This document shows positions 34,369 to 60,143 of a stretch of 64,000 bases of DNA, in pieces. Both the position numbers and the translations under genes were made by a program. Position 1 is the first letter of the stretch; each line of letters opens with the position of its first letter. The notes beneath the pieces are model-generated. The model saw only the letters and a list, made by a program, of their open reading frames with translations. It was not told where the DNA came from and did no database searches. Source of the stretch: Escherichia coli (lineage in GTDB: Bacteria; Pseudomonadota; Gammaproteobacteria; Enterobacterales; Enterobacteriaceae); the NCBI RefSeq assembly GCF_017348835.2, contig NZ_CP072315.1; one strand, 5' to 3'.

Positions 34369-34839
34369 TTAATGAATCCCTAAAATGCGGGCGGCGACTG
34401 CCAGCTGCTTATCACTTAACTGACGCTGGTGGGTTAAAGAAGACTTAAGGCTTTCCAGAAAATTATTACTGCTGGATTGCTGGGTGATTGCATCAACCAT
34501 TTTTTGATGAGATCTGCACCATGCATTGAACGCAGAGTTGTGGGCGTTTTCAGTCCTCAAACGCTCGTTTTGCAAGGATGCTGACACTTTGCGGGCAGCT
34601 TGAGCATTAATGCGGTACAGCGCATTCAGCGTGTAAGCAGTGCGGGTCGTTTCGAGGCTGTAACCCGTGGCTTTACAAGCCATACAGCGACTTCTATAAA
34701 AATGCTTACGCTCTCCCCGACCATTGCATTTATCGCAAAGAATACGAAAAGTATATTCCGCAGTACCTTTTACAGAATCAACACAGCGGATTTTTGCGCT
34801 GGAGATTTCAATTCCACTGCGATCATAATATTTGGTCAT
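34369..34839 (-). CDS. zinc-ribbon protein with DnaJ-type CxxCxGxG motif
   Basis: CDKCNGRG and CMACKATG motifs; promoter-proximal element about 52 bp upstream. Confidence 0.5.
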   Translation of the reverse strand: MTKYYDRSGIEISSAKIRCVDSVKGTAEYTFRILCDKCNGRGERKHFYRSRCMACKATGYSLETTRTAYTLNALYRINAQAARKVSASLQNERLRTENAHNSAFNAWCRSHQKMVDAITQQSSSNNFLESLKSSLTHQRQLSDKQLAVAARILGIH

Positions 34840-34890
34840 AATGTGATTCCTCCGGTTAGTTCTGGAGTAATCATGACAGAATGAATCTAC

Positions 34891-34906
34891 TGGCTAATAA
34901 CCTGAG
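34891..34906 (-). promoter_or_regulatory. conserved promoter-proximal element (tggctaataacctgag)
   Basis: About 52 bp upstream of the start at 34839. Confidence 0.45.
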
Positions 34907-35273
34907 AGTAAATATTTTAAAAAAACATTGAGAGAGGGTCTGCAAATTTATACACGAAGGATTCAAATATAATTTTGTTTAAAAAATTAAGAGCATTCTG
35001 AAGTAAAAGTGCATCAAAAAGCATTCATGGATAAATCATGTACTGGTGCCAGCCATTTAAACGCGGGCATTGTTCCGGAGTGATTAAACGGTTTAGCATC
35101 ATAGATTAAAACCAAAAGGAAGGCGTCCTTCCCGTCTCGGGAATATTACTTTCCCGTTTGCAATTTAAGAGCCACTTAATGAGAAAGTAATAATTAAGTC
35201 ATGCTCAACTCTACATATTACATTGAGGATGGCGTAACAGGGTACGGCATACTACCGCACCCTTCTGAAGAGC

Positions 35274-37691
35274 TTATGTTTGAGGGAATTCTATAGCAAA
35301 TGTGGCCGTGCCAGATTGACCACTTACAGCGGGAGTAACGGGATACGTGCGCTCTTCACCATTACCAAGATCCAGTGACAGCGATTTAGTTTCACCAGGC
35401 TGGACCGTAACTCCGGCAACCGTAACGCCGAACTGGGCATTTTTCTGAACAGTCAGGGTTCCGTTTAACTGTCCGGTAATGATAGAACCGTCCTGACGCC
35501 GCAACACACTGGTTCGGATGATGGCCAGCGGCGTGTTGTCCGTTGCTTTCAGTGCTACGGCTGTGGCCAGCGTCTTGAGATTATCCAGCATAATCAGATT
35601 CGCAGGCTGGTAGGTAAAATTAAGCGTTTTAGTGGTCCGGTTACCTGATTCGTCAATAGCCAGTGCCTCCAGATGATACATCTGTCCCGATTCGTCAGTG
35701 TTGGGGAAGATTCTGGGGTATTCCGGAATAAAGACATCCTTGGATAACGGCGTGAATGCCAGGGTGACCTTTTCAGAGTTAGGTCCACCAGCGAGCTGAA
35801 GCGATGTCAGGGAAGCATCCCCAGAGGCATCAGTAACGCTTATGCGAAGGTTCTCAAGCCCTTTAACCAGTTTTCCTTCTGCGTCTGCGCCATTAAAACT
35901 GAACGCGATAACCGGAAGCGTTGAGTCAATTTTCAGCGGTGCATTAAGCGTTTTGGTTCCGGTGTTTCCAACAAGATCCGTGGCAGAGACGCTAACCACC
36001 GTATAATCCCCGTCCGGTAGACCAGCGTATGAGAAGGTGGCGTTTTTGGTTTTATAATCGCTTTCACTGACGGTCACAGGCTTCAGCGTGAAAGGTTCCC
36101 CCCGGGCATTTTTAAGGGTGGCTTCGAAAACTTTGGTATCCCAGTAGCTGATGTTCCAGGCGTTGACGCGATCATTATCGGTGGCCGTCATAGTGATTGT
36201 CTTGGAGGCCTTGTTTACCTGAGCGACATTAACCACCGGTGGGTTGTTATCCCAGATAACCGTAAAATTACCAGCAAGCGCATCGAATATGCTGTCACCA
36301 TCTTTTCCCGAGTAAAGGTGCAGATACTCAAATCCTTTGTCACTGGTGTAGTTGAAGTTAACCGTCATCTCGCATGAACTTTGTCCGATAGGTATAGTGC
36401 AGAACCAGGCTGCATTTTTTACCGTTCTGAACTTTTGCACGTATGGTCGGGGTTCAGCGGTTACCTTTATGCGGCTAATGGTGGCGGTTTTAACGCTGAT
36501 TGAGGCCTGAGTTAACCACTCACTGGTATCACTCCGGTACATCTCTTTAGCCACTATCTTCGGGGCTATTTCCATCGCCGGGGCTGGAGTGAAGTTGAGG
36601 GAGTTATGATGAATTCGTCTTACTCCTCCTGCCAGAGTCTGGAATTCATGATAAGTATCCCCCACATTGGGATATATGTATTTGAAAGTATAAATATTAT
36701 AAGTGCTATCGGACGTCTGGAAATTCGAGTCCGCCCAGCCATATTTGGAACCGTTAACAGCAGTAAAGTCACTTTTTTTCCTTAATACCCGTACGGAAAT
36801 AGGGTTCTGGAAGACGGTCATGCCAGACTGATAAGTGACCCATGATCCGGTAGTGGCGTCCTGCACCTGGATGATATCGTCAGGCTTAACCCGATCAATT
36901 ACGCTTCGGCGGCTTAGTTCGATCCTGTTTCCCGCTTTGTCATAAAGGTAGATCCCCACTTTATATTCAGAGCGGTTTTCCGGTGCCAGGGCATTGCTGC
37001 TTGCGTCGGCGACTTGAACGGTTACGCTACCTTCCACTGTATTAATTTCCGCTGGCTTTTTACGCTCCACTCCAGCGGCATCGGTTATGAAATATTCAGC
37101 ATTAGCAAGCCCGGAACCTTTATCACTCAGTCCATTAAAGACCAGTGCCTGGACGCTGGCGTACTGCATACCGGCTGGTACTGAAGTGAAGATCGCTTCG
37201 CTGCCAAAGTTCCACCCGTTTCTCGTATAACTTATGGTACCCGTTGCCGGAGGCGTTCGGTCAATTGCAAGCGGGTAATCCTGCCGGGAGACCTCCTTCC
37301 CTTGCAAGTCGGTAATCACCTCTCTGAGGGTGAAGCTATCTTCTCCCATCGCTGGTACGGTCAGAGTCTTGCCGTAATAATCAAAGCCTGTCGAAGATGT
37401 GGTACGGTCATCTACGGTAACCAGGCTGCTTTTCGTGCTCCAGATGAGGCTCCCGTCACTTTTCAGCAGACTGAGCGTAATATAACGGTCCAGACCGGAA
37501 ATAACGGCAACGTCAAAGCTCGTTACCGGATTAATCCATACGGATGCAGGCGATACGGTCTTTTTAACGTTCAGGGTATCTTTAAAGCTGAATTCTGCGA
37601 TTTCAGCGGAAGCTCCTGCGCTGAAACCTGCAAATGCAATAAGCAGGGCTAGTTTGATTTTCATGGGTTGTCTCCTGATCAGGTTCCCCAT
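35274..37691 (-). CDS. large secreted beta-rich protein (paralog 1 of 3)
   Basis: 805 aa with N-terminal signal peptide (ALLIAFAGFSAGASA) and shared blocks with the two paralogs (ISGLDRY near N-terminus, GLENLRI, PEYPR(I/L)FPN, C-terminal L(D/Q)(L/M)G.G). Confidence 0.7.
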   Translation of the reverse strand: MGNLIRRQPMKIKLALLIAFAGFSAGASAEIAEFSFKDTLNVKKTVSPASVWINPVTSFDVAVISGLDRYITLSLLKSDGSLIWSTKSSLVTVDDRTTSSTGFDYYGKTLTVPAMGEDSFTLREVITDLQGKEVSRQDYPLAIDRTPPATGTISYTRNGWNFGSEAIFTSVPAGMQYASVQALVFNGLSDKGSGLANAEYFITDAAGVERKKPAEINTVEGSVTVQVADASSNALAPENRSEYKVGIYLYDKAGNRIELSRRSVIDRVKPDDIIQVQDATTGSWVTYQSGMTVFQNPISVRVLRKKSDFTAVNGSKYGWADSNFQTSDSTYNIYTFKYIYPNVGDTYHEFQTLAGGVRRIHHNSLNFTPAPAMEIAPKIVAKEMYRSDTSEWLTQASISVKTATISRIKVTAEPRPYVQKFRTVKNAAWFCTIPIGQSSCEMTVNFNYTSDKGFEYLHLYSGKDGDSIFDALAGNFTVIWDNNPPVVNVAQVNKASKTITMTATDNDRVNAWNISYWDTKVFEATLKNARGEPFTLKPVTVSESDYKTKNATFSYAGLPDGDYTVVSVSATDLVGNTGTKTLNAPLKIDSTLPVIAFSFNGADAEGKLVKGLENLRISVTDASGDASLTSLQLAGGPNSEKVTLAFTPLSKDVFIPEYPRIFPNTDESGQMYHLEALAIDESGNRTTKTLNFTYQPANLIMLDNLKTLATAVALKATDNTPLAIIRTSVLRRQDGSIITGQLNGTLTVQKNAQFGVTVAGVTVQPGETKSLSLDLGNGEERTYPVTPAVSGQSGTATFAIEFPQT

Positions 37692-59003: not shown

Positions 59004-59091
59004 GCATAGCACAAAAAAAGGAAAACGGCAGGCTGTGGGGCATTGAAAACCGGTTAAAGAAAGCTTAGACGTTTCATATGCGCTTACCGGA

Positions 59092-59102
59092 AAAGTAACT
59101 TT
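59092..59102. promoter_or_regulatory. AAAGTWACTTT palindromic motif copy
   Basis: aaagtaacttt; upstream of the proposed start at 59003. Confidence 0.45.
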
Positions 59103-59426
59103 TCTTAACGTTGGCTTTGACGATGTTCTTGCATTTTTACAAATGAAACCGAGACCCAGATCATTGTGCATTTTAAAGTCCATCTCCATCATCACCTTTT
59201 AGCCTTAACTGTATGGTATTGGTATACAAAAAATTAAAATTATAATTAATAAGATTATCATTTTTTTACAATAGAAAAGGTTCTGATAGAGGGGAATTTA
59301 AATGTAAAAGATTTATACTCGCAGATCTTTATGAGGGATAAAACCCATTGCGTAAGCAACAATATTACGTGAGTGAGTCCTAACGACAGTTAAAGTCTTG
59401 GCTCTATATTTAAGCAGCAAAAACAT

Positions 59427-60143
59427 TTAACTGTCTTGGAGTTTATTTAACTTAAAAACTGTTATTGCAGCATAATTTTTCGAATCAAATTCATAGAATT
59501 TTCTGACTTTTCCAGTCAAATGATAACGTTCACCCAATAAAATGTGATCCTGTTTATCGGCCGTTAAAGCGATCCCGTCATTTCTAACTTTACCAGTAAA
59601 TGTAAAAAAATAACTCCCTTTACTTTTTGCGTACGCGGCCCTGACTTCAGTAAATGTTAGTTCAATGCTTATGACCTGGCCGATATTGTAGCTATGTTTT
59701 AAAATTTCTTGTTCATTTTCCGGAGTTTCAGACAACATCACATCAAAAGTTGTAAAGAAACAATCCAGCTGGCGTTCTGTCAAGAAACGGTTATTGTCTA
59801 ATTGCGCCAATATACTATTAGAAAACTTAGTGTTAGCCTTTTTTGCTTTCTCAATAAGGACGTGGTTTCTGGATTTCCATGCTTCGAGTGTTGGGTTAAC
59901 ACGCAGTTCCGGAATGTTATCGAGAAAGGTAATTGGCTCTAGTGCCACTAATTTTTCAATAATGGGTCCAACTGTTTGTACCCCATGACACTTTTCACAT
60001 AAATCAGCCCCTTTGTGGCCTGTGCCCGCACATTCGTTACATTCTCTTTCGATAGGTGCATAATAATTTCCATCTCCGTTAAGTGATACATTCACTGAGG
60101 CTGGTACCATATGACCATCAAGAGTAAAGAAAAGAGATTTCAT
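59427..60143 (-). CDS. zinc-ribbon protein with DnaJ-type CxxCxGxG motif
   Basis: CNECAGTG and CEKCHG motifs near the N-terminus, like 34369..34839. Confidence 0.5.
   Translation of the reverse strand: MKSLFFTLDGHMVPASVNVSLNGDGNYYAPIERECNECAGTGHKGADLCEKCHGVQTVGPIIEKLVALEPITFLDNIPELRVNPTLEAWKSRNHVLIEKAKKANTKFSNSILAQLDNNRFLTERQLDCFFTTFDVMLSETPENEQEILKHSYNIGQVISIELTFTEVRAAYAKSKGSYFFTFTGKVRNDGIALTADKQDHILLGERYHLTGKVRKFYEFDSKNYAAITVFKLNKLQDS

Follow-up and report, generated by a model that had tools for sequence, protein, structure and literature searches.

Two zinc-knuckle proteins of the IncHI2 plasmid backbone, distantly related to phage proteins and possibly involved in plasmid DNA processing

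This report concerns two genes in a 64-kb window (the whole stretch of contig NZ_CP072315.1 that was analysed), which is backbone DNA of a conjugative multiresistance plasmid of the IncHI2 group. The two genes, here called open reading frames (ORFs) A and B, each encode a protein with a CxxCxGxG-type zinc knuckle, and comparison of their sequences indicates that they are distant paralogues and genuine conserved genes of the IncHI backbone. The explanation best supported for ORF B is that of a zinc-stabilised protein that binds nucleic acids in the processing of plasmid DNA; we hold it tentatively, as falling just short of probable. For ORF A, the most specific hypothesis, and a rather doubtful one, is that it serves as a regulator or antitoxin at the cassette of a HigB-like toxin. 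Nearly unchanged copies of both genes occur on more than 1000 sequenced plasmids, yet their annotation reads only 'hypothetical' or 'zinc finger-like'. The parts of the two genes referred to below are as follows.

34369..34839, minus strand: ORF A, 156 amino acids (aa), WP_000170638, 'hypothetical protein'; zinc-knuckle and helical module only
34663..34737, minus strand: ORF A zinc knuckle, residues 35-59 (CDKCNGRG ... CMACKATG)
34405..34461, minus strand: ORF A helical motif F127-x2-S130-L131-x3-L135-x5-L141-S142-x2-Q145, invariant alignment columns, aligned to the ORF B motif
59427..60143, minus strand: ORF B, 238 aa, WP_000838218, 'zinc finger-like domain-containing protein'; the module, then a predicted C-terminal oligonucleotide/oligosaccharide-binding (OB) fold
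59982..60041, minus strand: ORF B zinc knuckle, residues 35-54 (CNECAGTG ... CEKCHG)
59769..59825, minus strand: ORF B helical motif F107-x2-S110-I-x3-L-x5-L121-T-x-R-Q125 (F107, L121 and Q125 invariant), aligned to the ORF A motif
59442..59675, minus strand: ORF B C-terminal five-strand beta barrel, residues 157-234, OB fold in the structure model

The module common to ORF A and ORF B

An earlier note, made from the sequence, had described the products of these two ORFs as proteins with paired CxxCxG(x)G motifs and otherwise dissimilar sequence. Its coordinates are correct, and both ORFs are real genes on the minus strand with good ribosome-binding sites (for ORF A, a GGAGG Shine-Dalgarno sequence 8 nt ahead of the ATG). 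The second half of the description does not survive comparison. BLASTP aligns 112 residues of ORF A and ORF B with an E-value of 0.007, hhalign joins the two family profiles at E 6.8e-6, and with deeper profiles it does so at 97.8% probability and E 8.1e-13 over 123 columns (ORF A 4-150, ORF B 5-130). Both proteins moreover match the same segment of the phrog_4046 profile, positions 45-163 of 301 (E 3.9e-12 for ORF A, E 0.001 for ORF B), and in hmmsearch the hidden Markov model (HMM) of each family retrieves the other family together with phage proteins. The common module of about 130 residues runs in the same order in both, from an N-terminal strand through the zinc knuckle, a further strand and a long helix to a helical bundle, and it ends in the motif F-x2-S-[LI]-x3-L-x5-L-[ST]-x-[KRN]-Q. 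Searches with the family HMMs found no third copy of the module on the plasmid.

The paired motifs themselves are real, although only the first is perfect in each protein (C35-DK-C-N-G-R-G in ORF A, C35-NE-C-A-G-T-G in ORF B, both CxxCxGxG), whereas the second is degenerate (C52-MA-C-KAT-G, or CxxCxxxG, in ORF A; C49-EK-C-H-G-VQ, or CxxCxG, in ORF B). In both ORFs 10-13 residues separate the CxxCxGxG from the second CxxC, and there are no further CxxC pairs. These motifs are not due to chance: the stop-to-stop segments of the window (46,012 residues) contain four CxxCxGxG against about 0.11 expected, and of the four only those of ORF A and ORF B sit in real genes with a second CxxC no more than 25 residues on. 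The cysteines are also well kept. C35, C38, C52 and C55 of ORF A are nearly invariant across 13 relatives and invariant in an alignment extended with two phage proteins, while the ORF B family, down to 17-25% identity, keeps C35, C38 and C49 without exception and C52 in at least 90% of cases. The earlier note had said that a lack of conservation of the cysteine motifs in homologs would speak against it; the cysteines being conserved, that is not what was found. The two adjacent CxxCxGxG-type motifs of each ORF would form a single putative Cys4 zinc site.

Both families appear to be small. Word-indexed searches with ORF A, as a single sequence and as a profile, returned only close IncHI-type relatives, and an exhaustive profile search with ORF B gave 16 representatives at E<=1e-3 among 1.84 billion proteins. 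Within their plasmid group, on the other hand, the genes are ubiquitous. More than 1000 plasmids in PLSDB match both gene regions at 95% identity or more; they are typed IncHI2A / MOBH / MPF_F, and their hosts are Escherichia, Salmonella, Enterobacter and Klebsiella. The accessory-region setting that the earlier note had in mind does not describe such conserved backbone genes. An IncHI comparative-genomics preprint makes no mention of either gene.

Structure models add a second domain to ORF B. Its model has a predicted local distance difference test score (pLDDT) of 79.5 and shows the N-terminal arrangement and helices of the shared module, followed by the C-terminal barrel (pLDDT 85-91), which is five-stranded like an OB fold. 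This domain is basic (isoelectric point, pI, 9.4), and 13 of its 89 residues are aromatic. ORF A is strongly basic throughout (pI 9.8); in its model, which is zinc-free, the knuckle loop has low pLDDT. No solved counterpart was found for the fold of ORF A, and searches of solved structures by sequence gave nothing past motif-level DnaJ/UvrA noise. On the strength of the model, ORF B is predicted to be an OB-fold protein by structure, not by sequence family.

The closest non-plasmid relatives of ORF A are phage proteins of about 310 aa belonging to PHROG 4046, whose members include proteins of PB1-like Pseudomonas phages (F8 ORF012), UIS25261 of Erythrobacter phage vB_EliS-L02, proteins of phiCbK-like Caulobacter phages, and others. 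BLASTP matches ORF A to the N-terminal half of the Erythrobacter phage protein at E 3e-13. The PHROG 4046 proteins are homologous to all of ORF A and to residues ~5-130 of ORF B, and have the same zinc knuckle, long helix and F..SL...L.....LS.KQ motif. They run on, however, into a C-terminal region ending in DUF6011 (PF19474), which both plasmid ORFs lack; in its place ORF B has the predicted OB fold, whereas ORF A ends after the module. The module also occurs as a stand-alone protein, the 166-aa gp26 of Burkholderia phage BcepNazgul (Q6UYL4), found by Foldseek against BFVD at E 1.4e-7 and by hmmsearch at 1.4e-8; the next BFVD match is a protein of phage Sonali annotated 'SsDNA binding protein', at E 0.039. 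Two BcepNazgul genes bear on what follows.

BcepNazgul 14019-14519: gp26, the module alone
BcepNazgul 15308-16474: gp29, ParB-like

The former lies 0.8 kb upstream of the latter, near a RusA resolvase in the early/recombination region, a proximity that echoes the linkage of ORF B to a ParB-like gene on the plasmid. Among the neighbours of the phage homologues, only a nucleotide pyrophosphohydrolase and this ParB-like gene have an assignable function. A scan of viral contigs with the module alignment gave 586 pattern stretches, of which tblastn against ORF A confirmed 0, and literature searches found no paper on DUF6011, WP_000170638 or WP_000838218.

Genomic settings of the two genes

ORF B comes third in a compact operon on the minus strand, with short gaps and the order ParB-like gene, 66-aa ORF, ORF B, 285-aa ORF. 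Its other members are the following.

60358..61413, minus strand: orphan ParB-like protein, 351 aa, first gene of the operon (PF17762; TIGR00180, E 2.6e-8; phrog_1033, E 1.9e-25)
60140..60340, minus strand: 66-aa ORF, whose stop overlaps the start of ORF B (ATGA); a 60-69-aa homologue always lies just upstream in related elements
58338..59195, minus strand: 285-aa ORF, no family assigned, last gene of the operon; homologues of 260-295 aa in relatives

The same order surrounds ORF B homologues of 25-35% identity on five other contigs, where genes for a Dam methylase, another ParB-like protein and a DUF4942 methylase come next, and where the cluster adjoins divergently oriented pilin-TraL-TraE genes. 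Conservation of the order at such low identity argues for a functional unit. A canonical E. coli-type single-stranded DNA-binding protein (SSB) was not found by tblastn in the window or in 220 kb of plasmid pD90-1, and this check is incomplete because pD90-1 has lost its Tra1 region. As a separate observation, in three distant H-type elements a 520-548-aa protein without family (positions ~2600-4550) heads the ParB-like/ORF B operon, at the place where IncHI2 has a divergently oriented gene for a Rep3/TrfA-like initiator.

ORF A lies in a different setting, a trio completed by two downstream genes.

34023..34319, minus strand: HigB-like toxin gene, 49 nt downstream of ORF A (PF05015, E 5.4e-18; Proteus HigB PDB structures, E 7.5e-6)
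32833..34014, minus strand: 393-aa ORF (PGAP 'flavin reductase family'), 8 nt after the toxin, third gene of the conserved trio

Upstream of ORF A come the terminator of an immunoglobulin-like (Ig-like) gene and then an AT-rich spacer of 434 bp. No terminator-like site was seen in the spacers between the genes, the sole one in this stretch being a weak 5-pair stem inside the coding sequence of ORF A. Plasmids of IncHI2, IncHI1 and a third IncHI lineage, the pNDM-CIT type, all have the trio intact, as does one Enterobacter plasmid, with differing flanking genes. In PLSDB, ORF A is full-length in 1025 of 1025 records and the toxin is present in an equal number at 95% identity or more, whereas some 40 records have only a truncated or split 393-aa gene, with breakpoints at several different places, and it appears dispensable in some plasmids; in one plasmid ISKpn26 lies between the toxin and the 393-aa gene, with ORF A and the toxin identical. 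On neither side of the toxin was an antitoxin of helix-turn-helix (HTH), ribbon-helix-helix (RHH) or Phd type recognised. The 393-aa ORF was considered for that part and rejected, as it has no family or PDB match and does not resemble the genes that follow a 44%-identical HigB on a Klebsiella plasmid. Its disruption where ORF A and toxin stay intact makes ORF A the better candidate for the missing antitoxin or regulator, although the evidence for this preference is circumstantial.

The wider window opens with the end of the transfer region, followed by the RepHI2 gene and a second initiator; in pD90-1 the pilin-TraL-TraE (Tra2) genes come directly after the corresponding region. Its other features are these.

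19-2282: end of the transfer region (DUF4400 protein, S49 peptidase, NERD nuclease), opening the window
61890-62765: second initiator, Rep3/TrfA-like
7210-8394, 55984-57147 and 60358-61413, all minus strand: three paralogous orphan ParB-like genes (ParB N-terminal domain and HTH, no ParA partner), the last being the operon gene listed above
29020-30270 (minus strand), 39007-39831 (plus strand), 54045-55736 (minus strand) and 57496-58329 (plus strand): four DNA methyltransferase genes without adjacent restriction genes, among them one fusion of DUF4942 with an N6-methyltransferase and one of Dam type
35274-37691 (minus strand), 41285-43705 (plus strand) and 49587-52043 (minus strand): three Ig-like (DUF4165/Big_3) proteins of about 800 aa
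25844-25867, minus strand: third CxxCxGxG of the window (CSICRGSG)
16347-16628, minus strand: 93-aa hypothetical gene

The genuine partition systems of the plasmid (ParA/ParB, ParM) are located away from the three orphan ParB-like genes. The three Ig-like proteins are relatives of Ig-like-domain proteins that have been implicated in the conjugation of IncHI plasmids. Between about 14 and 38 kb nearly all ORFs are small and on the minus strand (DUF3085, DUF957, DUF6012, HNH, and a 794-aa PAPS-reductase protein), and with the methyltransferases this stretch resembles an establishment or anti-restriction region. The third CxxCxGxG is located outside the called ORF of the PAPS-reductase gene, in frame and 2-10 codons ahead of its ATG, and is probably chance, although an upstream non-canonical start might take it in; the fourth, in an antisense frame, was judged chance. 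The 93-aa gene carries the PLSDB/rgi label 'Brucella suis mprF, defensin resistance' at 100% identity, which looks like an artefact of database annotation.

Competing explanations

We propose that in both proteins a short beta-sheet carries an inserted single Cys4 zinc knuckle, followed by helices, in which the zinc ion would have a structural part, and that proteins of mobile-element DNA metabolism may use the module as a platform for binding nucleic acids or partners. In ORF B an RPA/SSB-type OB fold would be joined to this module, and ORF B would be co-translated with an orphan ParB-like protein beside replication and pilus genes. Given this fold and this co-translation, ORF B is most likely a zinc-stabilised accessory factor that binds DNA, perhaps single-stranded DNA (ssDNA), and it may act with the ParB-like protein in plasmid DNA processing, be it in replication, in segregation or in establishment once transfer is over. 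The very basic ORF A, which is locked to the gene of a HigB-like toxin, would most likely bind DNA or the toxin as regulator or antitoxin of the cassette. In plasmid establishment regions, SSB, methyltransferase and toxin-antitoxin genes cluster and anti-defence genes are common (PMC11541004); by analogy, the four methyltransferases and three orphan ParB-like genes of the window suggest a similar makeup, which would fit a role of ORF B in DNA processing.

Several points weigh against this explanation. Over its full length ORF B is slightly acidic (pI 6.4), and part of its module is acidic (pI 5.1, residues 1-70). It has no sequence match to the SSB (PF00436), RPA or tRNA-anticodon OB families in Pfam/NCBIfam at E<=1, and the alignments behind both structure models are shallow, with 13 sequences each. 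Database and literature searches yielded no characterised homologue. A bolder version can be formulated, according to which H-type (IncHI/MOBH-MPF_F) plasmids without a canonical SSB would use ORF B and the orphan ParB-like protein as a complex for ssDNA handling and establishment, the truncated paralogue ORF A would have been recruited as a new class of zinc-knuckle antitoxin or regulator for the HigB-like toxin, and the module would be a previously unrecognised DNA-metabolism domain of phages (PHROG 4046/DUF6011) and plasmids. As a whole we consider this version unlikely.

The idea that ORF A is an antitoxin, or a third, regulatory component, would have it neutralise the HigB-like RNase and autoregulate the operon, as a new antitoxin type comparable to MqsA. 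It concerns ORF A only and is compatible with a DNA-processing role of ORF B. A clear HigB homologue with no antitoxin of familiar type on either side, a trio kept across plasmid types despite differing flanks, an ORF A present full-length as often as the toxin where the 393-aa gene is disrupted in some 40 records or set apart by ISKpn26, and the lack of a terminator between ORF A and toxin all speak for it; in every IncHI lineage examined ORF A is adjacent to and co-inherited with the toxin. Yet ORF A has no recognised antitoxin DNA-binding domain (HTH-XRE, RHH, Phd/YefM, AbrB), a basic protein of 156 aa is atypical for a neutralising antitoxin, and in HigB cassettes the antitoxin gene normally comes after that of the toxin, an order kept by the 44%-identical Klebsiella toxin, which has no ORF A-like gene upstream. 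Neither the phage relatives of ORF A nor its paralogue ORF B lie beside toxins, and the co-occurrence may merely reflect backbone linkage and small target size. On balance we regard an antitoxin function as possible but doubtful. If ORF A does bind a protein, the adjacent plasmid-encoded toxin would be the likeliest partner, not a host factor.

A host factor was what the earlier note had favoured, in regarding both ORFs, as small zinc-ribbon proteins, as candidates for interaction with one. On this view they would bind and inhibit a host protein in the manner of Anti-TRAP or the anti-defence proteins of phages and plasmids. The arrangement of the knuckle is as in Anti-TRAP, with weak matches to the RtpA model (E 0.0038 and 0.00065) and a match of a phage relative to PF15777 (E 1.1e-4); the genes lie among methyltransferases, HNH and establishment-type genes, where anti-defence genes are common (PMC11541004); and the fold of ORF A is without a solved counterpart. 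The RtpA matches, however, reach 17-20 bits where the cut-off is 65 and are confined to the motif, and PADLOC matches neither ORF A nor ORF B, nor the 393-aa ORF or the toxin. Nor is ORF B small, and its predicted OB fold, of a nucleic-acid-binding type, and its deeply conserved ParB-linked operon fit a core function of the element and not a fast-evolving, patchily distributed inhibitor; ORF A is highly basic, and both are strictly conserved backbone genes at 95% identity or more in over 1000 plasmids. Inhibition of a host protein therefore seems to us improbable, and both proteins look more like nucleic-acid-handling proteins. Very improbable indeed is that they are fragments of DnaJ-family co-chaperones or Q-like zinc-finger transcription antiterminators. 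This would account for sub-threshold matches to PF00684 and TIGR02349, for a match of ORF A to phrog_127 'anti-termination protein Q-like' (E 0.0024) and for one of ORF B to TIGR02642 (E 0.02), but there is no J domain, G/F region or C-terminal peptide-binding domain, there are two motifs and not four, all scores lie below the cut-offs, and the TIGR02642 match covers the knuckle region only (residues 29-65). The phrog_127 match (residues 26-121) does extend beyond the knuckle, but the phrog_4046 match (E 3.9e-12) is much stronger and longer.

In Salmonella, E. coli and Enterobacter, IncHI2 plasmids are major carriers of resistance genes, among them mcr and those for extended-spectrum beta-lactamases. 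The present analysis turns two anonymous motif matches into testable hypotheses on their DNA processing and maintenance, founded on paralogy with a phage and plasmid module, on the OB fold in a ParB-linked H-type operon, and on the tie to a HigB toxin lacking an antitoxin. Should ORF B prove essential for establishment or stability, it would offer a target in the backbone that is specific to these plasmids; as matters stand, the result is an improvement of annotation and not a surprise.

Comparison with known families and systems

The term 'DnaJ-type zinc finger', used in the earlier note, fits at the level of the motif but not of the family. The DnaJ cysteine-rich domain has four motifs and two zinc centres, whereas ORF A and ORF B each have one perfect and one degenerate motif, two in all, for one putative site. 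Against Pfam DnaJ_CXXCXGXG (PF00684) they score 20.8 and 20.1 bits, respectively, where the gathering score is 32.7, and against TIGR02349 19.6 and 14.4 bits, where the cut-off is 377; neither has a match to a J domain or to DnaJ_C at E<=1. In Anti-TRAP, to which we liken the knuckle, two adjacent motifs suffice for one Cys4 zinc site, but the RtpA model (NF058604) gives ORF A 17.3 and ORF B 19.8 bits, far below its cut-off, and at about 53 aa Anti-TRAP is three to five times shorter than the two ORFs, whose flanking domains are unrelated to it. Neither ORF therefore belongs to the DnaJ or the Anti-TRAP family; judged by profile match and reciprocal hits, their real family is the PHROG 4046-type module, without the full-length DUF6011 architecture.

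Phage DNA polymerases of the HMO-2011 type contain an inserted partial DnaJ domain with two CXXCXGXG motifs (PMC9038755). There the knuckle is inserted in a family A polymerase, and the likeness to ORF A and ORF B is claimed for the motif only; the occurrence of two-motif knuckles inside such polymerases means that the motif is not diagnostic of inhibitor proteins. For ORF A beside a toxin of the RelE/HigB superfamily, the precedent is MqsA, a Cys4 zinc protein that acts as antitoxin to MqsR, a toxin of RelE fold. Their genes, however, stand in the opposite order, MqsA has a complete HTH domain where ORF A has none, and a relationship was rejected after comparison with the MqsA sequence detected no similarity.

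Zinc-containing OB-fold proteins that bind ssDNA are familiar from T4 gp32 and the DBD-C domain of RPA70. Compared with SSB and RPA, ORF B has its zinc knuckle in a separate N-terminal domain and not inside the OB fold, and in place of the acidic C-terminal tip of bacterial SSB it ends in KLNKLQDS. On the predicted structure, ORF B and its relatives would represent an uncharacterised family with a new architecture among putative DNA-binding proteins that combine zinc with an OB fold.

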